The position numbers were made by a program, and so were the translations under genes. A stretch of DNA of 64,000 nucleotides, taken from NCBI GenBank assembly GCA_047602425.1, contig JASGHG010000001.1, positions 2,528,001 through 2,592,000 of the forward strand, given 5' to 3'. The stretch is from Nibricoccus sp. (GTDB lineage Bacteria; Verrucomicrobiota; Verrucomicrobiia; Opitutales; Opitutaceae). The notes beneath the pieces were generated by a model that saw nothing but the letters and a program-made list of their open reading frames with translations, was not told the DNA's origin and made no database searches. Positions 2,673 through 29,014 of the stretch are shown here, piece by piece (within the stretch, counting starts at the first letter, position 1; each line of letters begins with the position of its first letter).

Positions 2673-2678
2673 GCCGGA

Positions 2679-8987: not shown

Positions 8988-9028
8988 GTAGTAGTATTAA
9001 GAGTTAGTTGAAAAAAGGAGAGGACGGA

Positions 9029-9790
9029 TCAGACGGTGCTAAGCTGGGCGTTGGAGACGCTGGAGTTTTGCGTGGCGGCCGGTTGTGTCGTGGTGGCGGC
9101 GACGGGAGCGGCTTTGCGGCTCAAGCGAGTCTCGATCACTTGCTGGAAGAGGGCGGGGCCGGTCATGAGCATGATCTTGAGATCGAGCCACAGCGACTTC
9201 TGGTGAGCGTATTTGATGTCCAAGTAGATCATTTCGCTGAAGGTGGTTTTGTTTTTACCGCTGACCTGCCAGAGGCCGGTCAAACCGGGGACGGACGCGA
9301 AACGGCGCTTTTGCACGATGGTGTAGTTCTCGTATTCGTAGGGAATGCAAGGACGCGGACCGACGAGGCTCATCTCGCCGCGGAGGACGTTAATGAGCTG
9401 AGGCAGTTCATCGAGGCCGGTGGCGCGCAGAATCCAGCCGCCGGGAATGAGGCGGGAATCCTTCTTGGTGTCCATCTTCACCATCGGAGCATTGGAGCCG
9501 ATCAGTTCCTTGAGGTAGGCCTGATGGGTGTTGGTCTCCGCGTTCATTTTCATGGTGCGGAATTTGTAGCAAAGGAACGTTTTGCCGCGGAGGCCGACGC
9601 GGGTTTGTTTGAAGAGCACGGGGCCGGGAGAGCTGATTTTGGTGATCACCGCAATGATGGTGACCAGCGGTAACAGCAAGGGGAACGCGGCGACGCAGCA
9701 TGCGATATCGAGTGCGCGCTTCCAAGTGGGGGAGGGGTTCCCGATCGGTTCGCAGAGGTCGGGTTGGACTGTTTGGATCTCGGAGTTCAT
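9029..9790 (-). CDS. Priming sugar transferase (bacterial sugar transferase, PGT)
   Basis: KRALD, YKFRTM, LDELPQLINVLRGEMSLVGPRP, PGLTGLWQV. Confidence 0.93.
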   Translation of the reverse strand: MNSEIQTVQPDLCEPIGNPSPTWKRALDIACCVAAFPLLLPLVTIIAVITKISSPGPVLFKQTRVGLRGKTFLCYKFRTMKMNAETNTHQAYLKELIGSNAPMVKMDTKKDSRLIPGGWILRATGLDELPQLINVLRGEMSLVGPRPCIPYEYENYTIVQKRRFASVPGLTGLWQVSGKNKTTFSEMIYLDIKYAHQKSLWLDLKIMLMTGPALFQQVIETRLSRKAAPVAATTTQPAATQNSSVSNAQLSTV

Positions 9791-9834
9791 GATGCGAATT
9801 TTGTGTAGTTAAATCTTAGGGTTTATTGAGTGGA

Positions 9835-10332
9835 TCAGATGGCCTTTGCCAGGAGGCTGCGGTCGATCGTCAGGCGCGCGTCGCAGCCGAGGATCGAAAG
9901 CAGAACGGCGACGCGTTCGCGGTCGTTGTGTGCGTCGAGGATGACGGCATGGAGGCCCTGCATGGGCCCGAAAGTGATTTCAACCTGTTCGCCAGCGGAG
10001 AACGCCGAGGCGGGGCTCGGAAGGGCGTTGCTTTCGGCCCAGGCCTTGATCTGAGCGATCAATTGCTCATCGACCCGGGCGGGCTGGGCACCGAAGCTGA
10101 CGAGATCGATGACATCGCGCGCATAACGGACGGCGCGGTAATCGGTGGTGAGGTCGCAACGGCAGAAAAGGTAGCGCGGGAAAAGCGGCTCCACGACTTC
10201 GCGGCGTACGCGGCGAATGGTTTTGTGAAGACGAATGGTTGGGAAATAGACCTCGAGGCCGAGGAAGGTGCTGAGTTGTTCAGCGACGAATTGTTCCCTC
10301 TGCGGACGGGTGTGGATGCAGTACCAGTTCAT
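9835..10332 (-). CDS. RfaH/NusG-family transcription antiterminator
   Basis: WYCIHT...E, PLFPRYLF (NGN domain), KOW GEQVEITFGP; first gene of the EPS operon. Confidence 0.88.
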   Translation of the reverse strand: MNWYCIHTRPQREQFVAEQLSTFLGLEVYFPTIRLHKTIRRVRREVVEPLFPRYLFCRCDLTTDYRAVRYARDVIDLVSFGAQPARVDEQLIAQIKAWAESNALPSPASAFSAGEQVEITFGPMQGLHAVILDAHNDRERVAVLLSILGCDARLTIDRSLLAKAI

Positions 10333-11134: not shown

Positions 11135-11827
11135 TTATTTGGCTTTGACAGCCTTCAGCACGACGAGGGTCAGCGGTATTTTTTGCGTGAGCGGCGGATG
11201 ATCGGGACGCGCAAGTTGAAGGGTGATTTCGGCGCGAGTCGAAGCGGCGGAGGGCTTGGGCGTGACCTGCAGGGTGGCGGGTGTGACGGTTTCCTCGAGT
11301 TTTAGTTCAAACTGGTCGTTGTCGCAGGTGGCGGTCAACTTGGCGGACGCGACGTCGTTCACAACGATGGTTATGGTTTTGCTCGTGTAGGGAGGACGGG
11401 ACCAAACGAGCTCACGCGGAGTTACGACAATTGCAGACGCGCTTGTCGTGAGAGGTGTGCCGCCGGAGGGAAGGTCCGCGGTGATTTTCAGAACGTAAGG
11501 CGGGGTGTCGGGCTCGCTGGTTTGGAGACTAATGGTATGGGTGTGGCGGCCCTGGCTGAGGCCAATGGTGTAGGTGGCTGTGATGACGCCCGTTTCGCCG
11601 GGCTGGTATTCTGTTTTGTCAGCCGTGGCCTTGGTGCAGCCGCAGGAGGTAGCGAGTTGCACGATCCATACGGGAGCGGGGCCGGAGTTGGTGAAGGTGT
11701 ATTGAGCCTGAAGTTCCTTGTCCTGCGGGCCGGCTTTGACGACGAGATCGGTGGTGGTGAACCGCAAACTGGCGGAGGCCACCACAACGGGTAGAAGGAA
11801 AAACAGGACGGATAGCCGGCAAAACAT
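11135..11827 (-). CDS. DUF1573 (Ig-like) domain exported protein
   Basis: Signal peptide; YTFTNSG...TSCGCT...PGETG motif; likely start MFCRL. Confidence 0.75.
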   Translation of the reverse strand: MFCRLSVLFFLLPVVVASASLRFTTTDLVVKAGPQDKELQAQYTFTNSGPAPVWIVQLATSCGCTKATADKTEYQPGETGVITATYTIGLSQGRHTHTISLQTSEPDTPPYVLKITADLPSGGTPLTTSASAIVVTPRELVWSRPPYTSKTITIVVNDVASAKLTATCDNDQFELKLEETVTPATLQVTPKPSAASTRAEITLQLARPDHPPLTQKIPLTLVVLKAVKAK

Positions 11828-11909
11828 GGCACTTGGAGCAATTTGAAATTTGAAAGTGACTGGGGGTTTGGTCATGAAATCGCAGCCCGAAAAGTTTACT
11901 CCTGTCTTC

Positions 11910-12683
11910 ATGTACCTCGATAAAAAAGTAGTGGTGATCATGCCTGCGTACAACGCTGCGAAAACTTTGCAGCGCACCTATGACGAGGTGATGGCGCAGG
12001 GGGTGGTCGACGAGGTCATCGTGGTCGACGACGCCAGCCGGGACGAGACGGTGGCTCTGGCCCGAACTCTGCCGCGGACGCAGGTCATCGTGCATCCGAA
12101 AAACCTGGGTTACGGGGGTAACCAGAAAACATGCTACACTGCGGCGCTGGCATCGGGCGCGGATATCGTGATCATGGTGCATCCAGATTATCAATACACG
12201 CCCAAGCTCATTCCCGCCATGGTGTCGATCATCGCGAATGGAGTTTATCCCTGCGTGATCGGCAGTCGGATTCTGGGCAACTATGCGTTGAGAGGCGGTA
12301 TGCCCGGGTGGAAATACGTGGCAAACCGCGGCCTGACGTTGCTGGAGAATATTTTGTTTGGTGCGAAACTATCGGAGTACCACACGGGATACCGGGCATT
12401 TTCACGCGAGGTGCTGGAGCGCGTGCCCTGGCAGGGAAATTCGGACGACTTCGTTTTCGACAACCAGATGTTGGGACAGATTCTCTGGTGCGGCTTCATG
12501 ATCGCGGAGGTCAGTTGTCCGACGAAATATTTCGCCGAAGCGTCGTCGATCAATTTCCGACGGAGTGTGCGCTATGGCCTGGGCTGTCTGGCGACGGCGG
12601 CGCGGTTTCGACTGGCGCGTATCGGCCTGATGGGCTCGCGAATTTTCCCGCGCGAACTGCAGGGCGAGCCATTCAGGGAGTAG
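11910..12683 (+). CDS. GT2, polyprenol-phosphate-sugar synthase (DPM1/Ppm1-like)
   Basis: MPAYN, VVDDAS, NLGYGG, HPDYQY, GSR, GYRAF motifs of DPM-synthase-like GT2s. Confidence 0.8.
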   Translation: MYLDKKVVVIMPAYNAAKTLQRTYDEVMAQGVVDEVIVVDDASRDETVALARTLPRTQVIVHPKNLGYGGNQKTCYTAALASGADIVIMVHPDYQYTPKLIPAMVSIIANGVYPCVIGSRILGNYALRGGMPGWKYVANRGLTLLENILFGAKLSEYHTGYRAFSREVLERVPWQGNSDDFVFDNQMLGQILWCGFMIAEVSCPTKYFAEASSINFRRSVRYGLGCLATAARFRLARIGLMGSRIFPRELQGEPFRE

Positions 12684-14883
12684 TGCGCCAGGGGCGTTCG
12701 GCTTCGTAGGCCGCGAGTTGGGCCTGAAGAAGATCGGCGAGGAGCTGACGATCCGTCGTGGCGATGACGGGGCGGAGGGTGTCGGCGGCTTGGGTATATT
12801 GGCCGGTTTCGGCGAGGGCGGCGGCGAGGATTTGGAGCACCTGATTGTTGCGACCGGAAAAGTGATTGTTAACGGCGGTAGCGAGTCGGAGTGCCTGCGG
12901 ACCGTCGCGGAGCGTGTCGTTGGAGGCCGTCGCAAGGAGCCACGCGAGATTGCAGGCGGCGTCGAGCTCAGCGGGATTGTTGGCGATGGCGGATTGGTAG
13001 GCGCGAATGGCGCCGGCAGGGTCGTGGGCGGCAAGCAGCAGGTGGCCGAGCGCGGTCTGGGCGCGACCGAAGGTGGGATCGAGAGCGATGGCGCGTTCGA
13101 GATGGGACTGGGCCTTGGCCGTCCGATTGAGGGCTAGAAGAGCTTGCGCGAGATTGAAATGGCGGGGGGCAGAATCGGGCTGTTGAGCGAGTGCTTTTTC
13201 GAAAAGCGGAAACGCCTCGGCCGGCCGGTTCAGAGCCAAGAGGGCGCTGGCGTAATTGGTCAGCGCATCGGGATTTTCAGGCCGGAGCGAGAGGGCATGG
13301 CGGGCGTGCGGAAGAGCGTCAGCGGGACGATTCTGGTCGAGGAGAAGTCCCGCGAGGTTGACGTGGGCGTCGACATATTCAGGACGAAGCTCAACGGCTT
13401 TCTGAAAATGAGGAAGAGCCTCGGCGGACTGATGTTGAATGAGCAGCAGGGCGCCGAGATTGTAGTGCGCTTGGGCGAGATTTGGACGGATTTGCAATGC
13501 CTGTTGATAAAGAGCGCGCGCTTCGTCGAGCCGACCTTGGTCGCGCAGGGCGTTGCCGAGATTGTTGTGGATTTCAGCGAAGGCGGGTTGAAGTTGGCGG
13601 GCCTTTTGGAGGTGGAAAATGGCTTCGGCAAGTTGGCCGCGTTGGTGAAGATGAAGTCCGAGGTTGCTATGGGCGACGAAGCAGCTGGGGTTTTTTGCGA
13701 GCGTGTCGCGCCAGATCGTCTCGGTGTTGCGGTAGATATGGCTCTGGTGCCAGGTTGTGGTTGCGAGCGCAACGAGCAGGACGAAGCTGAGTGTGCGTGG
13801 AACGGCCGCATTGAAGGGAAGCCAATGCCTGAGCAAGGTGGCAAAGACGCTGGAGACAGCCGCAATGAAGCCGAGGCTGGCGAGATAGACGTAATGATCG
13901 GCCACGAACGAATAGCGGAACGGATAGACGTTGAGAAAACCGAGGGCGGGAAAGAGCGTGCCGGCGAAAAGAAGCGTGGTCGCGAGCGGACCGCGTCGGC
14001 GGGTTCGAAGTATCCATAATCCGGCTACGAGCAGGACCGCGGCGACGGGGAAAAGAAATTGCCAGACGGAGGCTTCGTTTAAATTCCAGCGCGGATAAAT
14101 GAAGGTAAGGTTTGCGGGCCAGAAAAGTTTTCCCAGGTAAAACCAAAAGGCACGGCCCGCGATAAGAAGCCGCTGAATGGTGCCCAAGTCGAAGTCCGCG
14201 CCCTCGGCGCCGATGAACCGCCGTTCGATCCAGGCGGTGAACAATCCTGAACCAATACCGAGGAGAAAAAACGGCAGCAGGGGGAAAACGTCGCGTTGCG
14301 GCGAGAGCCGCCCGCGCTGCCACCAGAGAACAACCAAAAGAGCGGCGGGCAGGCTGGCGGTGACACTTTTGGAAAGAAGGGCCAGGATGAACAGAACGAG
14401 GGCGATGAAATAGTCGGTACACCGTCGGTCTTGATCGAAGCGCAACCAGGCCAGCGCGGCGCCGAGATAAAAGGCGGTCGAGAGCGTATTTTTGAGTTCG
14501 GAGATCCAGGCGACAGATTCGGCGTGGACGGGATGCAGGGCAAAGATCGCCGCCGCGAGCCACGCGCCGGGAAGGGCGAGGCGTTGAAGAATTCTAAAAA
14601 ACAAAAACGCGCATAAAACGTGCAGCGCAAGATTGGTGAAATGGTATCCAGGCATTGCATGTCCCCATAGACGATTCTGCAGCCAGAAGGCGGTGTGGGT
14701 GACAGGGTAGTATTGGGATACCGCGCCTGGTTCGGTCCAGATGCGGACGAGGCCATGGAAGGAGGCAAATTCCGGCGAAGTAAGATGATCGTCGTCGTCG
14801 AAAACGGCGTCGCCACGCCAGGCCGGTTGGTAAGCCAAAAACGTGACAACGACCAAAACTAAACCTAAGAGCCAAGAACGCAT
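12673..14883 (-). CDS. TMTC-like GT-C glycosyltransferase with C-terminal TPRs
   Basis: FDDDDH after TM1, HPVHAESVAWISELK, LLSK, ADHY; multi-TM N-terminal half and multiple TPRs. Confidence 0.8.
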   Translation of the reverse strand: MRSWLLGLVLVVVTFLAYQPAWRGDAVFDDDDHLTSPEFASFHGLVRIWTEPGAVSQYYPVTHTAFWLQNRLWGHAMPGYHFTNLALHVLCAFLFFRILQRLALPGAWLAAAIFALHPVHAESVAWISELKNTLSTAFYLGAALAWLRFDQDRRCTDYFIALVLFILALLSKSVTASLPAALLVVLWWQRGRLSPQRDVFPLLPFFLLGIGSGLFTAWIERRFIGAEGADFDLGTIQRLLIAGRAFWFYLGKLFWPANLTFIYPRWNLNEASVWQFLFPVAAVLLVAGLWILRTRRRGPLATTLLFAGTLFPALGFLNVYPFRYSFVADHYVYLASLGFIAAVSSVFATLLRHWLPFNAAVPRTLSFVLLVALATTTWHQSHIYRNTETIWRDTLAKNPSCFVAHSNLGLHLHQRGQLAEAIFHLQKARQLQPAFAEIHNNLGNALRDQGRLDEARALYQQALQIRPNLAQAHYNLGALLLIQHQSAEALPHFQKAVELRPEYVDAHVNLAGLLLDQNRPADALPHARHALSLRPENPDALTNYASALLALNRPAEAFPLFEKALAQQPDSAPRHFNLAQALLALNRTAKAQSHLERAIALDPTFGRAQTALGHLLLAAHDPAGAIRAYQSAIANNPAELDAACNLAWLLATASNDTLRDGPQALRLATAVNNHFSGRNNQVLQILAAALAETGQYTQAADTLRPVIATTDRQLLADLLQAQLAAYEAERPWRTTP

Positions 14884-14924
14884 GTATGACAGGTGTGCGG
14901 GCGGGGCAGGGAACTCTCTGAATC

Positions 14925-17036
14925 TTATTTCGGGGGGAACTGCTGGCGGAGGGCTTCGGCCAGTGTGGTGTCTCCGGTCGCAATGGCGAGAGCAAGCGCG
15001 CGGTTCGCGACCTCGGCAGCTTCGGCTTCACGGCCGCCTTGTCGCAACGCCAGCGCCAGGTTCGCCTGCATGCGGGGATTGGCGGGTTGGAGCCGCAGGG
15101 CGGTTTCGAAATGGACGATGGCGGCGGCGAAATCGCCTTGTTGCAGGCGGGCGACGGCGAGGGCATTGAGCGCATCGATGTCATGGGGCGCAGCGGCGAG
15201 CGCTTGTTCGAAATGAAGGGCGGCGTCGGCGGGAAGATTTTGTTGGAGCAGGAGATTGCCGAGATGAAAATGGGCATTGGCATGCCGCGGATTCAGTTTT
15301 AGCGCGTTTTCAAGATGGGCGCGCGCTTCGTCGGCGCGGTTGATTTGCGCCAAAACGAAGCCGAGATTGCTATGCGCATCGGCGAGATCCGGTTGAAGTG
15401 CGAGGGCTTTTTCGTAACTGGCGATGGCGGTTTGAAAATCGTTTTTTTGGAGGTAGGCATTGCCTAGGTTAAGCGCTGGCAGGGCGGATTCCGTTTGGAG
15501 CGCAGCGGCCTGGTTGAGCGCAGCGACGGCTTCGTCGAGACGACCGAGTTGGAGCAACGTGGTGCCAAGATTGTAATGAGCATGGCCAAGGTGAGGCTGG
15601 AGTTGGATCGCCTGCTGATAGTGAGCGATAGCGTCCTGCGGGCGCTGTTTTAGAAGAAGCGCGTTGCCGAAATCGACGTGGGCTTCGGCGTAGCGAGGAT
15701 GGATCGCCAGGGTTTTCTCAAATTGTTCGATGGCCTCGTCGACGCGAGCGGAATGGAGCAGGGAGGAACCGAGGTTGTAGTGCGCGACAAAGTTGTTGCG
15801 GGTGACGGCGAGCGTGTGGCGGAAAAGTGTTTCGCTATTGTGCCAATGACGGAGTTGGGCACGCGTCAGAAACCCCAGGGCGATAACGGCTGAAACGACA
15901 ACAAGGGACAGGCAGGTTTGGGAAAGTTTATCTTTGGCGAGAAGTTCGGCTATCCCCCATACGAACAGAATCAAAAGGCCGATCGATGGCAGGTAGGTGT
16001 AACGATCGGCCATGGACTGGCTGCCGACCTGAATCAAGCCGATGACTGGGATTAGCATGCCGGTGAACCAAAACCAACCCAGTGCGACAAACGGTTTGGC
16101 TTGTGCTTGTTTTACGGCAAAAACGGTGACCGCAATAAGGCAGACGAGTGCGATCAGCGGCGTTGTAACGGTCCATTGAGAGGGTTGAGGATAATAAATT
16201 GCGAGGTCGACAGGCCGAAAAGTGAGGCCGAGGTATTGAAGGTAGGCGACGCAGGCGTTTTCGAGCCGTTGGAAAAAGGAAAGGCTCGTGAAGGCGCGGA
16301 CGGCACCGCCTTGGTTTTGGGCGTGGTAGGTGGCGACGCAGGAAGCGGCGCTCAGGGCAAAAAAAGGAAGTTTTTCGCGAAGCAGCGGTTTAAGAAAAAC
16401 CGTTCGCCCGAGGGGCCAGACATCAAGCAGCAGCAGGACGCACGGCAGAGTGACAAGCATGGGTTTGCTCAGAAGGCCAAGGGCAGAAAGCGCCAGCGTG
16501 ACTACGTACCATACGGTGCGCCGCTGCGACTTTTTCGTGTAATGCGCGTATGAATACAGCGTAAGCAGGAAGAAGAACGCGCTGAGCACATCCTTGCGTT
16601 CGGAAACCCAGGAGACCGACTCGACGCGCAAGGGGTGCAGGGCGAAGAGAGCGGCGACGCCGGCGCTGCGCCAGAGAGAACCGGTGAGCCGACGCAACAG
16701 GAGCAACACGAGAACGGCGTTGGCGACGTGCAGCGCGAGGTTGACGCCGTGGGGTCCTCGGGGGCCTGGGCCGAACAGCGTCATATCGACCATGTGCGAA
16801 AGCCACGTGAGCGGATGCCAGTTGCAGGCATGAAAGGTTTTGAAGGCCCATTTTATCCCCGACCAAGTCAGGCCAGCCCGTACGTGGGGATTGTCCGTAA
16901 CGTAGTCAGCGTCATCGAGGGAAATGAACGGAAGGCGTGCGACCGGGAGGAAGGTGATCCAGACGACGATGGCAAGGGCAAGCGCCACTACCCACACGTG
17001 CCAGGCGGGACGTAGTGACTGGCCGCGCGTTTGCAT
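14925..17036 (-). CDS. TMTC-like GT-C glycosyltransferase with C-terminal TPRs
   Basis: LDDADYV, NWHPLTWLSH, HPLRVESVSWVSERKD, ADRYTY; TPRs; likely start MQTRG. Confidence 0.8.
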   Translation of the reverse strand: MQTRGQSLRPAWHVWVVALALAIVVWITFLPVARLPFISLDDADYVTDNPHVRAGLTWSGIKWAFKTFHACNWHPLTWLSHMVDMTLFGPGPRGPHGVNLALHVANAVLVLLLLRRLTGSLWRSAGVAALFALHPLRVESVSWVSERKDVLSAFFFLLTLYSYAHYTKKSQRRTVWYVVTLALSALGLLSKPMLVTLPCVLLLLDVWPLGRTVFLKPLLREKLPFFALSAASCVATYHAQNQGGAVRAFTSLSFFQRLENACVAYLQYLGLTFRPVDLAIYYPQPSQWTVTTPLIALVCLIAVTVFAVKQAQAKPFVALGWFWFTGMLIPVIGLIQVGSQSMADRYTYLPSIGLLILFVWGIAELLAKDKLSQTCLSLVVVSAVIALGFLTRAQLRHWHNSETLFRHTLAVTRNNFVAHYNLGSSLLHSARVDEAIEQFEKTLAIHPRYAEAHVDFGNALLLKQRPQDAIAHYQQAIQLQPHLGHAHYNLGTTLLQLGRLDEAVAALNQAAALQTESALPALNLGNAYLQKNDFQTAIASYEKALALQPDLADAHSNLGFVLAQINRADEARAHLENALKLNPRHANAHFHLGNLLLQQNLPADAALHFEQALAAAPHDIDALNALAVARLQQGDFAAAIVHFETALRLQPANPRMQANLALALRQGGREAEAAEVANRALALAIATGDTTLAEALRQQFPPK

Positions 17037-17076
17037 TGGATGTTCCAAATGGTTTCGGAATGTCGCCTCTGCGGCT

Positions 17077-19428
17077 CTACGGTGCAGCGAGGCCCGGGTG
17101 GCCGACACTGTTGAGCCAGGCTTGGGCGGCGGCGGGGTTATTTTTCATCCAGTAGCGGGCAACACTTTCGATGGCCGACTGCCGCTGCTGGGGATTTTCG
17201 ATTTTTTCAGCCCAGCGCGAGGCGAACTCCGGACGCTCAACGGCAATCGCCTCCGTGTAGGAGGACAGAGCCTTGTCGCGACCCTGACCGGCCGGAAGAG
17301 CGAGGATCCATTTGCCGGTATTAACCGGATCCTGACGTCCCCAGTTTTCGGCGAGGGAGTTGACGGCGGTGTCACGGGCCTGGCCGGCCGGCAGCGTGGC
17401 CGCCCAATTGGCGGTGGACGTAGGATCGGATTTTGCCCAATTTTCAACGAGCACACCGACAGTGACGTCGTTGATTTCACCGCGCGGAAGGCGCGAGGCG
17501 AAGGCGGCCGCGTCCGACGGGCTGTATTGGGAGAGGGCAGAAACGAGGGCGTTGTTGAATTCCTGGCGAAACGCGCCGGGCGGCGTGGCGCGCGCGCTTT
17601 CCATCGCGGCTTGAGGGTTGTCGCGAGCCCACGATTGGGTGATATGACCGATGAGGTCGCTTTGGTTGTCGCCGGGAGGTATTTGCCGGGCGATCTGAAA
17701 ACTGGTGCCGGGATCGGAGTAGACCAGAATGGCACCGATGGTGGCTAGCGCGCCCTGTTTGAGCGGACCCTCGGGCAACTGGCCGGCCCAGGCGAGGGCC
17801 GAGGTGGAATCGTCCCTGGCCCATTGGTTCAGGGCGCCAGTTAGGGCATTGCTCCGAGCTTCTTCTGACGGCAGGGCAGCCGCCCAGGCGATGGCGGCGC
17901 GCGGGTCGGTTTGTGCGCGGGCTTCACCGATTTGAGTGAGCGCGGCGGTTTTGAGCGGGCTTTCCGGCAAGGACTCGATCCAGGCGAGGGCCTGATGCGG
18001 ATCTTCGCGGGCATAGCGTATTATGATGTTGGATACGGCGTCGCGCTGGAGATTGCCGCCGGGCGGGAGGGCTTGGGCGAAAACGGAAGCGAGTTCAGGA
18101 TCCTCGGCGGCCAGTTCGAGGCTGATGGACTTGAGAAGCTCGTTGCGTTCGCTGCCGGTGGAGGTGGTCATGACATGTTCGATGGCGGCATCGGCGTCTT
18201 GTTGGGCGAGGCGGCTGATTGCGGTTGTCAACGTGGTGGTGCGAACGTCTCCGGGCGGCAATTTGCCGGCAAGCGTCAGCGCCTCGCGCGGGTCATTGAG
18301 CGACCAGAGCAAAAGGACGTTGTTGACGATGGTGTTTTTCGCGGTGCCCTCGGGCAGATTTTGCGCATATTCGAGCGCTCCTTTGGCGTCGACGTTGGCC
18401 CAATTGCCGACGATATGACCGAGCACGGTGTCGCGCATGCCTCCGGCGGGAAGGCGTTCGGCGAATTGCAAGGCGCCTTGGGAATCGGTCGCAGGCCAGG
18501 CGGTCGCGGTCATGGTGAGAGCCGCGTTGCGGTCTAGGCCGGCGGGGAGATTGAGCGCATATTCGGCGGCCGCAGAAGGCTGACGCGCGGCCCAATTCAA
18601 CATGACAACGCTGAAAACGGATTTTTTGTCGGCTCCATCCGGCAGCGACGAGACCCAGGCGAGAGCGGCTTCGGGCTGATTCGTGCCCCAGGCGCGCGCA
18701 ATGGCTTCAAGGATGTTGCGACGCTCGACCGATGGAAGTTTGAGCTTGTCGGCGTGGGCAGCCGCCGCCGCAGGATCAGTCTCGGCCCACGTGTTGAAAA
18801 CGGTGGCATAAGCCTCTGAGCGTTGGTTCGGTGGAAGCTGGACAACCAGTTCGAGCGCGATGCGGGGGTTTTGCGAGGACAGGATGGGCAGGGCGAGAAG
18901 GATGGCGTCGTTCCTGACGGCGCCGGCGGGCAATTTGCGAATCCAGGCGGCGGCTTCGAGGGGATTGGTGCGCAGCCAGCCGTTGAGGGCGGCGAGGATC
19001 GAGGCTTCGCGCATGCGGGAAGGCGGAAGTTTTTCCGCGAAAGCGAGGGCAGCGGCGGGATCAAGTTCGGACCAGAGCCCAAGCAAGGTCCGACGGAGCT
19101 CTTCCTGCACGGGATTGAGGACAAGATGGCGGGCTCCGGCGATCAGCCGCGCGAGATCGGCACCGGAGAGGCGGCCGAGAATGGCCGACCACTCGCGTGT
19201 TTGTCGCCAGATCCCTCGCTTGCATTCGAGTTCCAGACGTTCGACCAGTTGGTCGATGGTGAGAGGTTGTGCCGAGCTCTCGGAGACCGTGCCGGAAGAC
19301 TGGGCGGAACCGGAAATTTTGCGTAGGGCGTCGTTGGATACGCGGTTGGCAGGTGCGGTGGCCCGACCGAACCAGAAGCCGGCGGCAATGGTGGCGGCGA
19401 GGGCAAAGGTGAGCGCAAGGGGTTTCAT
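17077..19428 (-). CDS. Exported/anchored alpha-solenoid protein, ~21 repeats of ~32 aa
   Basis: N-terminal hydrophobic anchor; recurring W-x3-DPxAAxxWxxxLPxGxxR unit. Confidence 0.75.
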   Translation of the reverse strand: MKPLALTFALAATIAAGFWFGRATAPANRVSNDALRKISGSAQSSGTVSESSAQPLTIDQLVERLELECKRGIWRQTREWSAILGRLSGADLARLIAGARHLVLNPVQEELRRTLLGLWSELDPAAALAFAEKLPPSRMREASILAALNGWLRTNPLEAAAWIRKLPAGAVRNDAILLALPILSSQNPRIALELVVQLPPNQRSEAYATVFNTWAETDPAAAAAHADKLKLPSVERRNILEAIARAWGTNQPEAALAWVSSLPDGADKKSVFSVVMLNWAARQPSAAAEYALNLPAGLDRNAALTMTATAWPATDSQGALQFAERLPAGGMRDTVLGHIVGNWANVDAKGALEYAQNLPEGTAKNTIVNNVLLLWSLNDPREALTLAGKLPPGDVRTTTLTTAISRLAQQDADAAIEHVMTTSTGSERNELLKSISLELAAEDPELASVFAQALPPGGNLQRDAVSNIIIRYAREDPHQALAWIESLPESPLKTAALTQIGEARAQTDPRAAIAWAAALPSEEARSNALTGALNQWARDDSTSALAWAGQLPEGPLKQGALATIGAILVYSDPGTSFQIARQIPPGDNQSDLIGHITQSWARDNPQAAMESARATPPGAFRQEFNNALVSALSQYSPSDAAAFASRLPRGEINDVTVGVLVENWAKSDPTSTANWAATLPAGQARDTAVNSLAENWGRQDPVNTGKWILALPAGQGRDKALSSYTEAIAVERPEFASRWAEKIENPQQRQSAIESVARYWMKNNPAAAQAWLNSVGHPGLAAP

Positions 19429-21341
19429 GGCGAGGAAGTGGGGAGGGCGGCGCGATAATTTTGAAGTTGTGCGCGCAAGGCCGCGGTTTGCGCGGAATCG
19501 CCGGCGGAGGAGGCGAGCGCCAGGGCGTGTTCCACCGAGGCAATCGCCTCCTGCTCGCGGCCTTGCTGGTGATAAGCGAGAGCGAGGTTCGCGTGGGCGT
19601 GGATCAAGGCGGGTTGGAGGTGGATGACGGTTGTGAAACGTTCGATGGCGGCGTCGATCTGGCCATCCTGGAGAAGCGTCCAGCCGAGGTTGTTGAGGAA
19701 TTCGATATTTTGCGGCCGGAGCGTGGCGGCAATGGTCAGATGCAAGAGCGCGTCGGAGAGTTGTTGTTTTTGAAACAAAATCAGGCCGAGGTGATAGTGG
19801 GCTTCGGCGAAATCGGAATTGAGCTCAAGCGCGCGCTGGGCGGACGCAGTGGCTTCGTCAAGTCGACCGAGTCGCAGCAAGCCGTGGGCAAGATCGGCGT
19901 GAGCCTTGGGCTCGTTGGGCTCGATTTCGATGGCGCGTCGGAAATGAGCCAGGGCCTCTTCGCTTTGGCCCTTTTGCAGCAACGCGTGGGCGAGGTTGCC
20001 ATGGGCGTTGCCGTGATTGGGAAGGATTTCGAGTGCGGTGCGAAAATGAACGATGGCCTGGTCGATGTTGCCTTGTTGGAGAAAAATCGCGCCGAGATTG
20101 TTGTGACCCATGAAGGAGCGCGGATTTTTTTCGATGGTAGTCTGCCAGAGAGATCGAAGGTCCTTGTACATGTGGCTCTGGCGAAAGGTTGCGGCGGCGC
20201 AGGCCAGGAGGATGACAGCGGAAAGCCCGAGGCGCAGAGCGGGGAGACGAAGGGAATGAAGGCCGGCGGCGAGCAAAGCGGCGGGGCCGAGCAGGGCGAC
20301 GTAGACGTAGTGATCGGCGACGAACGTGTACTTGAAAGTGTACAGCATGATGAAACCCAGGAGCGGGCTGAGCATGGCGGCAAACCAGACCAATGCCGTG
20401 CCAGGCCCGCGGCCGAACTGTTTACGCAGAAGGAAAAGCACTGCGGTGAGCGCGAGCAGAAGAATTAGCCAGACGTAGGCGAGCAGGGAAGCGGCGTCGA
20501 TTTTCCAGAGCGGATAGGAAAAGGTGAGGTCGACGGGCCAAAGGAATTTGCCGAGGTAAAAACAAAGCGAGCGGCTGGCGATGAGCAGGCGGTCGAGCGC
20601 GTTGTAGGAAAAGGCGACGGCGCCGGTGCCCTGGTGATGACGCTCCCACCAAACCGTGAGCAGTCCCATGGCCAGGCTGAGCAAAACGAACGGCGCAAGC
20701 TGCAGCCACCGGCGAAGGTCGATGGGTTTATGCTTGAGCCAGAGAATCAAAACGAGGGCGGCGGGCAAAGTGCAGGCGGTGGTTTTGCTCAGCAGCGCAA
20801 GCGCGTGAAAAAGCAAAGCGAGCGCGTACCAGCGCCAGGGCTTCGGTCGCTCGGCCCACTCAAGCCACGCGAGCAAGGCGAGCAGGAAAAAGAAAAGCGA
20901 CTGGACGTTTTTAAGCTCGGTGATCCAGGCGACGGACTCGACCTGCAGCGGATGCAGGGCGAAAACTGCCGCGCCGAACCAGGCGCCAGGAAGAGAAAGC
21001 CGTGCAAGCAGGCGCCAGACCAGCAAGGCGTTGACGGCGTGAAGCAGGATGTTGACCCAGTGGTAGCCGGCGGGATTGAGCGCCCAAAGCGAATATTGCA
21101 AACGGAAGCTGGAGTAGGTGAGCGGAAAATACTGCGAAGGCGAATCGGTGGAAAACCAGATGCGCCAAAGACCGTCCGGTGCGCTGAGCAGAGGATTATT
21201 GGTGACGTAATCGTCGTCGTCCCAGATGAAACCCGCGGTCCACGCCGGCTGATACGCCAGCACGACCATCGCAACCAAAACCAAACCCAAGAGCCACGGT
21301 AGAAGGCGTCGCATGGAAATATTTTTCGTGAACGGGGTCAT
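19425..21341 (-). CDS. TMTC-like GT-C glycosyltransferase with TPRs
   Basis: WDDDDYV, SQYFPLT, HPLQVESVAWITELK, ADHY; TPRs; 4-nt overlaps with both neighbours. Confidence 0.8.
   Translation of the reverse strand: MTPFTKNISMRRLLPWLLGLVLVAMVVLAYQPAWTAGFIWDDDDYVTNNPLLSAPDGLWRIWFSTDSPSQYFPLTYSSFRLQYSLWALNPAGYHWVNILLHAVNALLVWRLLARLSLPGAWFGAAVFALHPLQVESVAWITELKNVQSLFFFLLALLAWLEWAERPKPWRWYALALLFHALALLSKTTACTLPAALVLILWLKHKPIDLRRWLQLAPFVLLSLAMGLLTVWWERHHQGTGAVAFSYNALDRLLIASRSLCFYLGKFLWPVDLTFSYPLWKIDAASLLAYVWLILLLALTAVLFLLRKQFGRGPGTALVWFAAMLSPLLGFIMLYTFKYTFVADHYVYVALLGPAALLAAGLHSLRLPALRLGLSAVILLACAAATFRQSHMYKDLRSLWQTTIEKNPRSFMGHNNLGAIFLQQGNIDQAIVHFRTALEILPNHGNAHGNLAHALLQKGQSEEALAHFRRAIEIEPNEPKAHADLAHGLLRLGRLDEATASAQRALELNSDFAEAHYHLGLILFQKQQLSDALLHLTIAATLRPQNIEFLNNLGWTLLQDGQIDAAIERFTTVIHLQPALIHAHANLALAYHQQGREQEAIASVEHALALASSAGDSAQTAALRAQLQNYRAALPTSSP
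20121..21298. repeat. ~1.18 kb near-identical direct repeat, copy 1 (GT-C domain)
   Basis: Matches 22031-23208 at a constant offset of 1910 nt. Confidence 0.9.
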
Positions 21342-23314
21342 GACCTGTGCTCGCGGCAGGCGGCGAGCTGAGCTTGAAGCGTTTCCTTGAGCGAAAGGTC
21401 GGGCTGTTTTTCCAGAAGCTTGAGCGCGCGTTCCAGCACCGTGGCGGCCTCGTCGGGGCGGCCTGTTTGGAGAAGGGCATAGGCTAGGTTGCTGTGGCTC
21501 TGGATATTTGTTGGGGCAAGTTCTAGTGCGTGCTGAAAATGAACGACAGCCTCGCCGAGGCGCTGTTGGCGCAGGCAGGCGCTGGCGAGATTGGTGTGGA
21601 TGTCGGGATCGGTGGGATTGCTCGCGAGCGACGCTTGATATTCACGAATCGCCTCGTCGAAAGCGCCTTTGTCGAAATAGGCATTGCCGAGATTGTAGTG
21701 GGCATTGGCGTGCGCTGGGGCGAGGGCGATGGCCTTTTGAAAACAATGCATGGCGGCATCTAGGTCGCCCTTGCGACGCAAGGCGCTGCCGAGATTGTTG
21801 TGGGCGTCGGCGAGGTCTGGCTGCGTCTCGACCGCTTTTTGTAGTTGAAAAATGGATTCATCAACGCGACCGAGTTGAAGGAGCGCATTGCCCTGATTGA
21901 TGTGGCTGAGCGCGCGGTCGGACTGGGGCGGGTCGAGAGCAAGGGCTTCTTGCGCGTGCCGGAGAGCCTCGTCCGCGTGTCCCTTGGCGAGAAGAGCCGC
22001 ACTGAGATTGTTGTGCGCGATGTGCGACGCCGGATTTTTTTCGATGGTGGTCTGCCAGAGGGATTGAAGGTTTTTGTACATGTGGCTCTGGCGAAAGGTT
22101 GCGCCGGCGCAGGCCAGGAGGATGACAGCGGAAAGCCCGAGGCGCAGAGCCGGGAGACGAAGGGAATGAAGGCCGGCGGCGAGCAGGGCGGCGGGGCCGA
22201 GCAGGGCGACATAAACGTAGTGATCGGCGACAAACGTGTACTTGAAAGTGTACAGCATGATGAAGCCGAGCAGGGGGCTGAGCATGGAGGCAAACCAGAC
22301 CAGCGCCGTGCCAGGCCCGCGGCCGAACTGTTTACGCAGAAGGAAAAGCACTGCGGTGAGCGCGAGCAGAAGAATCAGCCAGGCATAGGCGAGCAGAGAA
22401 GCCGCGTCGATTTTCCAGAGCGGATAGGAAAAGGTGAGGTCGACGGGCCAAAGGAATTTGCCGAGGTAAAAACAAAGCGAGCGGCTGGCGATGAGCAGAC
22501 GGTCGAGCGCGTTGTAGGAAAAAGCGACCGCGCCGGTGCCCTGGTGATGACGCTCCCACCAAACCGTGAGCAGTCCCATGGCCAGGCTGAGCAAAACGAA
22601 CGGCGCAATCTGCAGCCACCGGCGAAGGTCAATGGGTTTATGTTTGAGCCAAAGAATCAAAACGAGGGCGGCGGGCAAAGTGCAGGCGGTGGTTTTGCTC
22701 AGCAGCGCAAGCGCGTGAAAAAGCAAAGCGAGCGCATACCAGCGCCAGGGCTTCGGTCGCTCGGCCCACTCAAGCCACGCGAGCAAGGCGAGCAGGAAAA
22801 AGAAAAGCGACTGCACGTTTTTAAGCTCGGTGATCCAGGCGACCGACTCGACTTGAAGAGGATGCAAGGCGAAAACCGCCGCGCCGAACCAGGCGCCAGG
22901 AAGAGAAAGCCGTGCAAGCAGGCGCCAGACCAGCAGGGCGTTGACGGCGTGAAGCAGGATGTTGACCCAGTGGTAGCCGGCGGGATTGAGCTGCCAAAGC
23001 GAATATTGCAAACGGAAGCTGGAGTAAGTGAGCGGAAAATACTGCGAAGGCGAATCGGTGGAAAACCAGATGCGCCAAAGACCGTCCGGCGCGCTGAGCA
23101 GAGGATTGTTGGTGACGTAATCGTCGTCGTCCCAGATGAAACCCGCTGTCCACGCCGGTTGATACGCCAGCACGACCATCGCAGCCAAAACCAAACCCAA
23201 GAGCCACGACTGGATCGAAGGGCTTAATGAACCGAGGGGCTGGAAAGCGGTAGGCTTTGGGGTGGTTTCAGGCATTGGCAGGGTTTTTGCCACAGGGAGC
23301 ACGGAGCTCTTCAT
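21338..23314 (-). CDS. TMTC-like GT-C glycosyltransferase with TPRs
   Basis: Membrane domain almost identical to that of 19425..21341; TPR half clearly different. Confidence 0.8.
   Translation of the reverse strand: MKSSVLPVAKTLPMPETTPKPTAFQPLGSLSPSIQSWLLGLVLAAMVVLAYQPAWTAGFIWDDDDYVTNNPLLSAPDGLWRIWFSTDSPSQYFPLTYSSFRLQYSLWQLNPAGYHWVNILLHAVNALLVWRLLARLSLPGAWFGAAVFALHPLQVESVAWITELKNVQSLFFFLLALLAWLEWAERPKPWRWYALALLFHALALLSKTTACTLPAALVLILWLKHKPIDLRRWLQIAPFVLLSLAMGLLTVWWERHHQGTGAVAFSYNALDRLLIASRSLCFYLGKFLWPVDLTFSYPLWKIDAASLLAYAWLILLLALTAVLFLLRKQFGRGPGTALVWFASMLSPLLGFIMLYTFKYTFVADHYVYVALLGPAALLAAGLHSLRLPALRLGLSAVILLACAGATFRQSHMYKNLQSLWQTTIEKNPASHIAHNNLSAALLAKGHADEALRHAQEALALDPPQSDRALSHINQGNALLQLGRVDESIFQLQKAVETQPDLADAHNNLGSALRRKGDLDAAMHCFQKAIALAPAHANAHYNLGNAYFDKGAFDEAIREYQASLASNPTDPDIHTNLASACLRQQRLGEAVVHFQHALELAPTNIQSHSNLAYALLQTGRPDEAATVLERALKLLEKQPDLSLKETLQAQLAACREHRS
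22031..23208. repeat. ~1.18 kb near-identical direct repeat, copy 2 (GT-C domain)
   Basis: Matches 20121-21298. Confidence 0.9.
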
Positions 23315-23428
23315 GGGCTCAGGGCCTTGAGCGAAGTCGAAACGGCTTGGACGCAGAGGTCACGGTGATCGGAGGGAAGCGGACGGTGGTAAACGTTTGT
23401 AGGGGAGGACTGGTTTTGGGCGAATTTT

Positions 23429-25726
23429 TTAAGGGTTCGAACCGACGATCGACTTGAGCCAGGCAGACGCGGCGTAGGGGTCGGTTTTTTGCCAGATGGC
23501 CGCCACGGACTCGGCGGCCTTTTTTCGTTCCGCCGGCGTGGCAATGGCGGTCACCCATTTCGCGGCAGACTCGGGTTGTTTCTGTGCGATTTGTTCGGCA
23601 TAGGCTCCATACGCGATGTCGCGCGCTCCGTCGGGTGGCAGAGTATTGAGCCATTGGCCGGCCTTGCTGGCGTCGGTGCGGCCCCACTGCTCGGCGATGT
23701 TGCGCAGGGCGAAGTCACGCACGGCGCCCGGTGCGAACTGACTGGCCCAGGAGGCTGTCGCCGAGGGATCGGAAATCGCCCAGTGCACGACTACGTCGTT
23801 GATCGCATTGTTTTTCACATCGGATGGCGGCAACGTGGCGACGAGTGCGGCGGCCTCGGGCGGGGCGGTTTGCGAAAAATAGGAAACGAGGCTGCTGATA
23901 AACTCGGTGCGGGTCTGACCCGGTGGCAGTTGCTGGGCGCGCTGCAGGGCGGTGTTCGGGTCCTGGCGAACCCATTCGAGGGCGACTGTATTCAAAATTC
24001 CATACTGGTCGGCGCCGGGTTGGATCTTAAGTGCGAGGGCGAAACCCGCGGCGGGGTCCATGCCCGCGAGATGCCCGCTCACGGCGGTGAGGGCATTGTG
24101 ACGCGCAAGTCCCTCGGGCTGTTCCAGCGCCCAATTCGTGGCAGTGAGGGCGTCGGTTTTCACCCATTCAGCCAGCGTTTTCTCCAAGACACGGGTTCGG
24201 CCTTCGTTTTCCGGCAGCGATGACGCCCAGGCGACGGCGGCCTGGGGATTTGTCGCGACGAGGCTGGTGGCGATTTGCGAGAGGGCGATATTTTTGCTCA
24301 TGCCGTCGGGCAGGGAGCGGGCCCAAGTGATGGCTTGTTGCGGATCGGCCTTGGCGAGTCCGTCGGCGATGTAGTTGACGGCTTTGCCCTGCTCCTCACT
24401 GGGAGGCATCAGCACGGCGAAACGAGAAGCCGTCTTCGCGTCGCTGGCGGCGAGGTTCATGGTCACAGTTTGCAGGATGGTGTCGCGTTCGCTGCCGGCA
24501 GGAGTTTTGCGAATGAAATTGAGGGCGGCGTCCGGGTCCTGTTGTGCGAGTTGGCTGAGGACGGATTTGAGCGCGGTGGTGCGAATGCTGTTGGGCGGCA
24601 GGCTGGCGGCGCTGGCGAGAGCGGCGTTGGGATCGTCGCTGGCCCAGCGGCTCATGATGCTGTCGATCACATCGCCCTGGGTGGCGCTGGCGGGAAGGTT
24701 GCGCGCGTAGGCAAACGCGGACGCGGGATCGAGGTTGGCCCAATTGGCGATGAGATCGCGGGTGAAAATATTGCGGTTGCCGCCGGCGGGGAGGTTTTCG
24801 GCGAAGCGCACGGCGCCCTGGGGGTCGGAAGCGGGCCAATGGGAAGCGATCATGGTGATCGCGGCGCCGCGCTCTGAACCAGGAGGTAGAGACAAAGCAT
24901 AACCGGCGGCGGCGGTGGGATCGGCTGACGCCCAGTCGGAAAGGATGCGATTAAACGCGGTGGTGCGCATGCCGCCTTCCGGCAGGCCGCCGGCCCAGGC
25001 GAGCGCACTGCGGGGATCGCGCGCGCCCCACGCGGCGGCGATGGCGTCGTGAACGGAAGTGCGATCGGACGGGTTGAGCTTGAGCGTGGCTGCAAACGCG
25101 GCGGCGGCCTTGGGATCCTTGGAGGCCCAGGTTTTGAAAATGGCCGCGTAGCCGGAAGAGCGCATGGTGACCGGAAGCTCTTCGAGAAGGGCAAGGGCGG
25201 CGTGTGGATCTTTGGCGGCGAGGTGGGGCAGCGCGAGATTGAGGGCCTCGTATTTCAGCGGGCCGGTCGGAAGCTGCCGAATCCAGGCGATGGCGGCGTC
25301 CTGTTTGGCGGTGAGCCAGGTTTGGAGAATGGCGACCATGCTCGTTTCGCGCATCACGGGGTCGGTGAACGCCGAGGCAAACGCGATCGCCGCGGGAGCA
25401 TCTCCTTCCCCCCAGCACGCAAGGAGCGTGCGGCGCAATTCGTTTTGGGCGGGCGCGGTCAGCCGGGAGCGGACGCGGGCGACAAGGCGGGAAAGCTCGG
25501 TCGGGGTGAACGAGCGCAGAAGACGCTCCCACTCGCGACTGGCGCGCCAGATCCCCTGCCGGCAGGCGGCATCGATCTCCGCGGCGGCCTGGGCAACGGG
25601 ATCGGCGACGGCGGTTTGGGTGTGATCAGTGGTTTTGGTTGTGTCCGGACGCCAGAAGCGACCGAACCAGAATCCTGCGGCAAGACCGAGGGCGAGCAGG
25701 CATGCGGGTAGAACAGCCTTTTTCAT
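23429..25726 (-). CDS. Exported/anchored alpha-solenoid repeat protein, paralogue of 17077..19428
   Basis: Shared AAGFWFGR anchor, CxxGIWR and ELRRTLL motifs, and ~20 DPxAA...LP repeats. Confidence 0.75.
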   Translation of the reverse strand: MKKAVLPACLLALGLAAGFWFGRFWRPDTTKTTDHTQTAVADPVAQAAAEIDAACRQGIWRASREWERLLRSFTPTELSRLVARVRSRLTAPAQNELRRTLLACWGEGDAPAAIAFASAFTDPVMRETSMVAILQTWLTAKQDAAIAWIRQLPTGPLKYEALNLALPHLAAKDPHAALALLEELPVTMRSSGYAAIFKTWASKDPKAAAAFAATLKLNPSDRTSVHDAIAAAWGARDPRSALAWAGGLPEGGMRTTAFNRILSDWASADPTAAAGYALSLPPGSERGAAITMIASHWPASDPQGAVRFAENLPAGGNRNIFTRDLIANWANLDPASAFAYARNLPASATQGDVIDSIMSRWASDDPNAALASAASLPPNSIRTTALKSVLSQLAQQDPDAALNFIRKTPAGSERDTILQTVTMNLAASDAKTASRFAVLMPPSEEQGKAVNYIADGLAKADPQQAITWARSLPDGMSKNIALSQIATSLVATNPQAAVAWASSLPENEGRTRVLEKTLAEWVKTDALTATNWALEQPEGLARHNALTAVSGHLAGMDPAAGFALALKIQPGADQYGILNTVALEWVRQDPNTALQRAQQLPPGQTRTEFISSLVSYFSQTAPPEAAALVATLPPSDVKNNAINDVVVHWAISDPSATASWASQFAPGAVRDFALRNIAEQWGRTDASKAGQWLNTLPPDGARDIAYGAYAEQIAQKQPESAAKWVTAIATPAERKKAAESVAAIWQKTDPYAASAWLKSIVGSNP

Positions 25727-25744
25727 GGGGCGGTATCTATAGAT

Positions 25745-25777
25745 AAAAAAGCCGCAGCGCCAAGCAGGTGCCGCGGC
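25745..25777 (-). terminator. Rho-independent terminator after the secreted beta-helix gene
   Basis: Minus strand GCCGCGGCACC-loop-GGCGCTGCGGC followed by TTTTTT. Confidence 0.7.
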
Positions 25778-25810
25778 CTTGGAGGTTAAAAGATGAAGGT
25801 CAGCGGAAGC

Positions 25811-26743
25811 TTATTTGCAGGTCACGTTGATCGAGTTGCCGCCGCCGTCGGAGCTGATGGCGGAGCAAGGATGGCAGTTCGTGACGGTGCCGGAATTGAC
25901 CTTGGAGTTGGAGGCGGTCTGGAGCCAGACGCCATGGCTGCTGCAGTTGGTGGCGTTCACCGTGCTGATGGTGGTGCCGCCGCTGCCGGAAACCGAGAAG
26001 AAGCCGCGGCCGCAGCTGGTCGAATTGACCGTGCCGAGGGTGGTGCTCTTGTTGGTGTTGGCGACGCGGAAGCCGGCGTAGCCGCCGCCGTAATTGCAAC
26101 GAGTGCCGTTGACGGCGGTGCCGTTGGCGCTGCTCGAGTAGTTCAGGAGCATGCCGCAAGCGCCGCGATCGGTGGCGTTGACGGTGTTCCACGAAACGCC
26201 GGAGATGCCGTAGGTTTCGACGCCATTGTCGCCGCCGGCGGTGAGCTTGACCTGGCCGAAGGTGAAGTTGGAGCCGCCGCCGCCTTTGCAATTATCGATG
26301 CGGTAGGCGATGCCGGAGGTGCCGTGCGTCGAACTGAACGACGTGCCTTGGCAGGTGCTGAAGTACATGCCGAAGTAAGCCGAACCAGCCATGTTGATAT
26401 TGTCGCAACCGGTGCTGGAGATGTTGGCGCCGCGAACGATGCCGCCGGTGCCGGAGCCCGTGAGGGTGACGCCGTTGCCGTTAACGCGGATGTTGCTCTT
26501 GACGTTGATCTGGCCGGTGCTGCCGGAGTTGCGGATATTGACGGTGCCGGAACTCATGGCGGCGACGCAGGCGTTGGCCGCGGCGGCGAGACTGGAACCG
26601 GTGTATTTGGTGACGCCATCGACTTTGCCCGTCCACGTGCTGCCGGAAAGGGTGACTTCACCGGTGGCTGCGAACGCGCTGGGACTAACAACAAGGCCGA
26701 CAAGGGCCGCGATAGACATGATCTTCGAGAACGAAGTTTTCAT
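25811..26743 (-). CDS. Secreted Gly/Ser/Thr/Asn-rich right-handed parallel beta-helix protein
   Basis: Signal peptide ending AFA; repeated TVN-x-T-x-C/G coils; GVETYG and GYAGFRVAN motifs; 11 Cys; strongly biased codons. Confidence 0.7.
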   Translation of the reverse strand: MKTSFSKIMSIAALVGLVVSPSAFAATGEVTLSGSTWTGKVDGVTKYTGSSLAAAANACVAAMSSGTVNIRNSGSTGQINVKSNIRVNGNGVTLTGSGTGGIVRGANISSTGCDNINMAGSAYFGMYFSTCQGTSFSSTHGTSGIAYRIDNCKGGGGSNFTFGQVKLTAGGDNGVETYGISGVSWNTVNATDRGACGMLLNYSSSANGTAVNGTRCNYGGGYAGFRVANTNKSTTLGTVNSTSCGRGFFSVSGSGGTTISTVNATNCSSHGVWLQTASNSKVNSGTVTNCHPCSAISSDGGGNSINVTCK

Positions 26744-28955: not shown

Positions 28956-29014
28956 GACATGGGCGGGGTTGATTGAAGACGGCGTAGTCTAGCCAAAATC
29001 GACGGCAGGATCCT

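Follow-up and report, generated by a model that had tools for sequence, protein, structure and literature searches.

A conserved gene cassette in Opitutaceae combining a secreted, predicted beta-helix protein, solenoid repeat proteins, and TMTC-like transferases

Gene content and conservation of the cassette

The stretch of DNA considered here (the window) comprises 64,000 nucleotides of the complete, 5.16-Mb genome of Nibricoccus sp. (Verrucomicrobiota; Opitutaceae), namely positions 2,528,001 to 2,592,000 of contig JASGHG010000001.1 (assembly GCA_047602425.1). It holds a nine-gene cassette (Table 1) that encodes a secreted protein (SEC), two helical-repeat solenoid proteins (S1 and S2), four transferases of the GT-C type that carry tetratricopeptide repeats (TPRs) and resemble the TMTC proteins of animals (T1 to T4), a glycosyltransferase of family GT2, and an exported DUF1573 protein. 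An initial annotation of the sequence had listed nine open reading frames (ORFs) and proposed that they form a TMTC-type protein O-glycosylation system; each of the nine was recovered at the same place and in the same order, and the identities suggested for the DUF1573 and GT2 proteins were confirmed by Pfam.

The same nine genes, in identical order and orientation, were found in another genus at G151:C12 and G175:C44, and the arrangement therefore exceeds chance. Interleaved, reshuffled versions occur at G175:C50 and in the genomes G063, G214, and G274, while G192 carries a solenoid-solenoid-TMTC-TMTC-TMTC-GT2 run and a TMTC-SEC run on separate contigs, and further variants lie on the metagenome contigs L084, L085, and L090; in L090, G274, and G214, the GT2 gene is co-oriented and directly follows SEC. 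The association proposed at the outset is thus conserved for the whole set, DUF1573 included, as is the link between GT2 and the TMTC-like genes. DUF1573 accompanies four cassettes (G151, two loci in G175, and G063), and a separate observation is its fusion to a c-type cytochrome domain in two cassettes (L160:7270-8079 and L166:2645-3457).

Across 300 genomes of the family, the 8 that have a close SEC homolog (E below 1e-90) are also the 8 that have a close long solenoid (identity of at least 41%). Members of the T1 clade came to light in 6 of these 8 and in none of the other 292, counts drawn from searches that scored 6-8 candidates per genome and may include misses (one run missed G151 and G063, both of which carry the clade). 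Among 47 metagenome SEC loci, several of them duplicates and many of them too short for a verdict, a solenoid gene lies directly downstream in 15 and TMTC-like genes are present in 6; on an AT-rich contig from another lineage (L099), the two genes that come after SEC are TMTC-like and belong to a different clade. SEC was found in none of four other genomes of the same genus and, phylum-wide, in 2 of 300 genomes, both as distant matches. Chance assembly, entertained when a first search of 30 genomes returned no SEC, was discounted once 300 genomes and the metagenomes had been searched.

Table 1. Features of the cassette, with positions counted in the window
Feature	Position	Strand	Remarks
SEC, 310-aa secreted protein, predicted right-handed beta-helix	25811..26743	-	likely polysaccharide-active; candidate sugar acceptor
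Terminator-like hairpin between SEC and S1	25744..25780	-	11-bp stem and U run
S1, 765-aa membrane-anchored protein with 32-residue helical repeats (DPxAA/W)	23429..25726	-	likely SEC escort
T1, TMTC-like GT-C and TPR transferase	21338..23314	-	PMT_2, TPR; cassette-specific clade in tree
T2, TMTC-like GT-C and TPR transferase	19425..21341	-	PMT_2, TPR
S2, 783-aa S1 paralog (42% identical)	17077..19428	-	4-nt overlap with T2 stop
T3, TMTC-like GT-C and TPR transferase	14925..17036	-	second clade; ORF reaches 17108
T4, TMTC-like GT-C and TPR transferase	12673..14883	-	third clade; PMT_2, TPR
Soluble GT2, likely polyprenol-phosphate-sugar synthase	11910..12683	+	HPD replaces DAD
Exported DUF1573 protein (Ig-like, HYDIN/VesB-type)	11135..11827	-	Pfam; second candidate acceptor or helper

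Regarding finer layout, the likely true starts of DUF1573, GT2, and T3, as read from the sequence, are 11827, 11910, and 17036, and the 3' ends of T4 and GT2 overlap by 11 nt. The minus-strand run had been described as partly linked by 4-nt overlaps and divided into two blocks of one solenoid and two transferases each; precisely two such overlaps exist, those of T1/T2 (21338-21341) and T2/S2 (19425-19428), but the latter crosses the supposed boundary between the blocks. The terminator placed 3' of SEC was borne out as a hairpin followed by a U run (approximately 25780-25744; z -2.9, with 3 of 200 shuffled sequences folding equally well), and is not among the sites listed by a simple terminator scan. 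Hairpins also occur in 7 of 11 spacers between enzyme and solenoid genes in this genome, some of them weak or within the next gene, and in 4 of 11 SEC-solenoid spacers in relatives, 3 of them clear, both counts being free of shuffle control; spacer terminators were not used as evidence.

Directly downstream of DUF1573 (window 1-10332) lies a surface-polysaccharide cluster led by an RfaH/NusG gene and containing a sugar transferase, a DegT aminotransferase, a hexapeptide acetyltransferase, and a Gfo/Idh oxidoreductase, which is not found beside the cassette in G151 or G175. Upstream of SEC (window 27363-29872), a secreted GH43 gene and a divergent regulator, judged by eye to be AraC-like, stand outside the conserved cassette.

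The secreted protein and the solenoids

SEC bears a signal peptide, and its AlphaFold2 (AF2) model, with a predicted local distance difference test score (pLDDT) of 92.9, is a right-handed beta-helix. Structural comparison (VIA) aligned 263 residues of the model to an alginate epimerase/lyase with Z 30.1 and a root-mean-square deviation (rmsd) of 2.0, and gave Z 26 to polygalacturonases. In 92 aligned sequences, R148, D150, E176, R226, and R246 are invariant and W273 is 97% conserved; in the model, at the level of secondary structure, these residues lie on successive short strands or beside them, a placement that would suit an active groove. SEC is alike beta-helix polysaccharide enzymes (alginate epimerase/lyase 8ja4, AlgE4, GH28, and phage tailspikes) in fold (Z 26-30), in its signal peptide, in having conserved Arg, Asp, Glu, and Trp residues on stacked strands, and in the occurrence of lectin fusions among its homologs (ricin-B in 4 of 120 listed), although it is just 9-15% identical to them and matches no Pfam family and no PDB sequence. 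As modelled, SEC is likely a carbohydrate-active enzyme, with polysaccharides as its predicted substrates. The initial annotation had seen in it merely a Ser/Thr-rich substrate, a description that was set aside because the composition is in keeping with a beta-helix whose conserved face resembles that of an enzyme; this composition likely reflects the fold and is compatible with glycoprotein status, but is no evidence for it.

Both solenoids are built on a repeat of 32 residues. S1 has an N-terminal hydrophobic segment at residues 4-22, and the N-terminus of S2 is hydrophobic at a level below the threshold used for a segment of the S1 type. Matches in the PDB are weak, to LapB and alphaRep repeats, and no foldase family was matched in Pfam, NCBIfam, or the PDB. 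In other genomes S1 and S2 each have an ortholog of their own, 52-56% identical where the positions correspond, as against 43-44% where they do not. The genome encodes 15 members of the solenoid family, 13 of which are shorter paralogs at 11 other loci, and at all 11 of these a co-oriented gene for a degradative carbohydrate-active enzyme (CAZyme) is a neighbour (background, 1-2 of 87 sampled genes). The CAZymes in question are PL1 (three), PL3 (two), PL4, PL11, an alginate-lyase-like protein, GH53, GH127, and a CBM64 protein; at one PL1 locus, the direct neighbour is a pectinesterase, with PL1 one gene further.

Since solenoids follow SEC where the transferases are absent and their paralogs abut CAZyme genes, S1 and S2 are likely membrane-anchored escorts of SEC rather than scaffolds for glycosyltransferases, by analogy with the type II secretion chaperone pattern, as outlined in the relevant part of PMC4713064, in which a membrane-anchored protein is encoded beside a secreted enzyme. 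With such chaperones (Lif/LipH, LipB, and CpaB), the solenoids share an N-terminal membrane helix, a periplasmic body, and a gene that adjoins that of a secreted enzyme; unlike them, they are 32-residue-repeat solenoids of approximately 770 residues without a foldase-family match, and their family is paired with many unrelated CAZyme folds and includes fusions to signalling domains. The genome contains three secretin genes. A complex prediction for S1 (residues 55-765) with SEC (residues 26-310) scored 0.15 vs a mark of 0.32, which gives no verdict and was not used as evidence, and a contig scan with S1 returned two loci, neither informative. Separately, 103 stretches matching the solenoid repeat were counted in G019, and at L006 (G000:C1:1409001-1427000) a unit of a PL3 lyase, two solenoids, and an ankyrin protein occurs twice, in either case opposite a TMTC-like gene; G004 conserves one of the two copies.

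The TMTC-like transferases and the GT2 protein

All four transferases have TPRs according to Pfam, and PMT_2 scores above its cut-off in T1, T2, and T4 and marginally so in T3 (26.3 bits vs a cut-off of 26.1). The membrane domain of T1, the sole transferase modelled (pLDDT 81.7), fits the GT-C fold, with Z 18.8 to STT3B, 18.7 to both AglB and Pmt2, and 17.8 to ArnT (rmsd 4.4-4.9 over 304-327 aligned residues); the top 20 VIA matches are all GT-C folds, with Z from 18.8 to 10.2, and the next falls to 5.2. Foldseek with the same model returned nothing below E 0.001, nearly all of its top matches nonetheless being GT-C proteins, and PDB sequence searches with T1 or a 16-member TMTC profile gave nothing meaningful. 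Of the outcomes that the initial annotation had named as refuting its reading, neither a fold other than GT-C nor a gene association lacking in other genomes was observed. The motifs on which that annotation had relied, DD after the first transmembrane segment (TM1), HP-x3-ESV-x-W (written there with x2), SK, and AD(H/R)Y, are present a single time in every one of T1 to T4.

Comparison with animal TMTC1-4 (GT105), as these are described in the pertinent parts of PMC7801869 and PMC11292533, was made by mapping motifs in order against the seven listed in Table 4 of PMC7801869, free of any direct alignment to animal sequences. The likeness lies in a GT-C membrane domain followed by TPRs, in DD in the first outside loop (M1, present in all four and 99-100% conserved in 150 homologs), HP at the end of TM3, and a conserved Lys in loop 3, and in the existence of several paralogs, which in the cassette stand side by side. 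Unlike the animal proteins, T1 to T4 lack SHKSYRP (M2, a mannose contact), of which an aromatic-x-Pro core remains, the Glu of KE (M4), of which the Lys is kept, and DW (M5), M4 and M5 being metal and phosphate ligands in TMTC; T3 alone has RxD (M3) and the Arg of M7 (DRxxY for ERxxY), where T1, T2, and T4 have xKN and DHxxY. The cassette is, moreover, bacterial, with a GT2 and solenoid partners of its own. Other TMTC-like paralogs in the genome retain KE and DY; three paralogs match DUF1736 weakly (best E 0.069), and a single relative from the same family, in G019, passes the cut-off for this domain. As several donor and metal motifs are missing and DUF1736 is not matched, T1 to T4 are on this evidence TMTC-like in architecture and are not to be filed as members of GT105. 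The lumenal polar residues D62, D63, H151, E156, E163, K165, N166, K207, D364, and H365 are 97-100% conserved in the 150 best homologs, and this near-invariant set argues for a live active site in the T1-type clade, the donor of which may differ from that of TMTC.

The two halves of these proteins may have had different histories. Between T1 and T2, identity is 97% over the membrane halves (window 22085-23224 and 20112-21311; 94.9% in DNA over 1220 nt) vs 33% over the TPR halves; paralog pairs elsewhere behave similarly (79 vs 42 in G151; 82 vs 58 in L085), and across genomes a TPR half is like that of the ortholog at the equivalent position. From these sequence patterns, we infer that the catalytic half is subject to repeated gene conversion whereas the recognition halves are kept separate.

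The genome contains 17 TMTC-like genes at 12 loci, 13 of them beyond T1 to T4, and the bacterial family amounts to 65,139 clusters at E up to 0.001; the existence of prokaryotic TMTC homologs is noted in section 6 of PMC7801869. At 5 of the 12 loci (G000:C1 16457, 2165937, 3070633, 3535806, and 4045033), stand-alone TMTC-like genes lie beside TonB-receptor-like genes, vs a background of 1.5% that is biased low because its seeds were partly drawn from TMTC neighbours; many examples also occur in relatives (L061-L070), and such TonB-dependent receptors are candidate acceptors. Two type IV pilin-like genes at L213:8527-13654 in G004 are adjoined by a convergent group made up of a GT2 ortholog, a TMTC-like gene, and a PMT_2 gene.

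The closest PDB sequence to the cassette GT2 is the Pyrococcus DPM synthase (E 9e-10), in which DAD (the DxD metal motif) stands where GT2 has HPD. Its best NCBIfam families (AglJ, PpgS, and dolichyl-P hexose transferase) are all lipid-phosphate sugar synthases, matched at 53-59 bits, far below the cut-offs of 325-375, and it has no terminal membrane helix. Orthologs at E up to 1e-100 occur in 40 of the 300 family genomes; among 30 GT2 loci, this one included, a TMTC-like gene is adjacent in 13 and within the same cluster in 3 more, and another PMT_2 gene is adjacent in 1. This adjacency supports a donor-synthase role, and GT2 is likely the donor synthase for TMTC-like genes, no particular sugar being implied. 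In three genomes (L188, L189, and L193), GT2 orthologs stand beside serpin genes.

Bacterial polyprenol-phosphate-sugar systems include actinobacterial Pmt/Ppm1, ArnT/ArnC, and GtrABC. The cassette is alike these systems in that a GT2 donor synthase is encoded beside GT-C transferases; unlike theirs, its transferases are TPR-bearing, are present in four copies, and are linked to a secreted enzyme and repeat proteins, and its GT2 has HPD for DAD and no membrane helix. GtrA (PF04138) and DUF2304 (PF10066) were not found in the genome in searches whose positive controls were detected, and the cassette contains neither a flippase nor sugar-nucleotide genes. Together with the 13 additional TMTC-like paralogs, these results contradict the notion, advanced in the initial annotation, of a self-contained machine.

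Proposed mechanism, competing explanations, and significance

The cassette is read, tentatively and at slightly less than an even chance, as an enzyme-plus-escort core to which an optional lipid-linked glycosylation arm has been added, the acceptor being SEC and/or the DUF1573 protein. SEC would be exported via the signal peptide seen in its sequence and is predicted to fold as a beta-helix; S1 and S2, anchored through an N-terminal helix, would keep hold of SEC or help it to fold until it is released, as the pairing of the genes suggests. On the inner side of the membrane, polyprenol phosphate would be charged with a sugar by GT2, the flippase being encoded outside the cassette, and the four enzymes with a predicted GT-C fold and invariant DD would transfer this sugar in the periplasm, their differing TPR halves perhaps choosing sites or clients. 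The presumed acceptors, to which the gene neighbourhood and the analogy with animal TMTC point, are Ser/Thr residues on the beta-strands of SEC and/or of the Ig-like DUF1573 protein (22% Ser+Thr), and the sugar may be one other than mannose. Preference is given to a protein acceptor over a non-protein target because TMTC-like genes elsewhere adjoin genes for exported proteins (TonB-receptor-like and, in G004, pilin-like). A bolder version, in which the cassette is a bacterial counterpart of animal cadherin O-mannosylation and the solenoid holds the exported beta-helix enzyme while several TMTC-like transferases with a common chemistry and different TPR readers add single sugars to Ser/Thr on its beta-strands before secretion, is rather doubtful.

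Several observations weigh against an enzyme, an escort, and a glycosylation arm that function as one. SEC-solenoid pairs occur in G080 and G120 without the T1 clade or this GT2, and at L098/L100, L105, L110, and three G192 loci without linked TMTC genes, and distant SEC homologs occur without either partner, so that the glycosylation arm is dispensable. All genomes with the cassette fall within four genera, possibly through descent from a single transferred cassette; the counts are therefore not independent, and hypergeometric p-values computed from them overstate the association because the genomes are kin. The larger cassettes of G063 and G175:C50 add GT9, second GT2, and PMT_2 genes, and thus envelope-glycan targets also fit. 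For the transferases, the absence of M2, M3, the Glu of M4, M5, and the Arg of M7 from T1, T2, and T4 must be counted, as must the search with DUF1736 (PF08409), which matches none of T1 to T4; for GT2, a GT-C gene is missing from the surrounding 1.5 kb at 13 of the 30 loci. Fusions of solenoid homologs to extracytoplasmic function (ECF) sigma factors or TIR also occur (P0129, P0133, P0195, P0201, P0203, P0124, and P0150; L060:4900-7329), which suggests that the repeat can also serve as an outside sensor; several of the more distant long solenoids are not adjoined by a gene for a secreted enzyme, and among five of them only one lies within an evident CAZyme cluster. Lastly, the Ser+Thr content of SEC in genus g64 is 0.233 when linked to the arm vs 0.229 when unlinked (G192 has the arm elsewhere); in genus g4, a single contrast, it is 0.294 vs 0.229. 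With a result so mixed across genera, Ser/Thr enrichment was rejected as a supporting sign of glycosylation.

Alternatively, the GT2/TMTC arm may modify a non-protein envelope target (lipid A/lipopolysaccharide or capsule, in an ArnT-like manner) or unrelated envelope proteins, SEC and its escort being co-inherited for lifestyle and not as acceptors. GT-C homology alone cannot fix a substrate (section 8 of PMC7801869), and ArnT, at Z 17.8, is about as close to the T1 model as PMT (18.7) and OST (18.8); besides the genes added in G063 and G175:C50, a TMTC-TMTC-GT2 set at G192:C13, free of SEC and solenoid, follows a sugar-synthesis operon. This explanation is nevertheless unlikely: the TPR halves suggest protein clients by analogy with the account given in part of PMC11292533, transferase genes are interspersed with solenoid genes and coupled to them in translation (the T2/S2 overlap), exported proteins repeatedly adjoin TMTC-like genes, and the RfaH-led polysaccharide cluster is not kept by the cassette in G151 and G175.

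Still less probable is that the SEC-solenoid and TMTC-GT2 pairs are independent mobile units that were fused once and spread jointly with no functional link. Each unit is also found alone, the cassette is patchy even within the genus, and the families are large (17 and 15 paralogs in the genome, and the tens of thousands of transferase clusters counted above), as this explanation would have it; however, at least five different interleaved orders retain all parts, genomes with SEC were the only ones to yield the T1 clade, L099 joins SEC to a different TMTC clade, and a solenoid lies within 3 kb at 3 of 12 TMTC loci (two of them duplicates) vs a background of 2.3%. The proposal of the initial annotation, a self-contained complex for TMTC glycosylation in which the solenoids act as structural scaffolds, is improbable, for although each solenoid heads a transferase pair in three genomes, T2 and S2 overlap, and S1 and S2 orthologs are separately maintained, the solenoids track SEC and are kept in the two genomes without T1-type transferases or this GT2, 9 of 12 TMTC loci in the genome have no solenoid within 3 kb, and neither GtrA nor DUF2304 was found there.

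In the preferred reading of an enzyme-plus-escort core with an optional glycosylation arm, the individual elements have precedents: lipid-linked protein glycosylation in bacteria is of a known kind, and membrane-anchored secretion chaperones are already known, as the corresponding part of PMC4713064 attests. In open-licence papers and preprints, neither a characterised bacterial locus coupling TMTC-like enzymes and an escort in one cassette nor a functional study of the bacterial TMTC-like family was found. The cassette names candidates for both the donor enzyme and the acceptors, and genomes that hold the enzyme and escort without the arm provide a natural control, so that the question is directly testable. 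If the proposed arrangement is true, it would provide a small bacterial model for TMTC-type recognition of beta-rich clients, and the action of TMTC proteins on folded vs unfolded domains is listed as an open question in the part of PMC11292533 concerned with it. Should the bolder, cadherin-like version be true, bacterial TMTC-like proteins in their tens of thousands would be glycosylases dedicated to particular clients, among them secreted enzymes, TonB receptors, and pilins. Finally, the cassette points to an unnamed family of escorts and an unassigned family of beta-helix enzymes in plant-polysaccharide-degrading Verrucomicrobiota.

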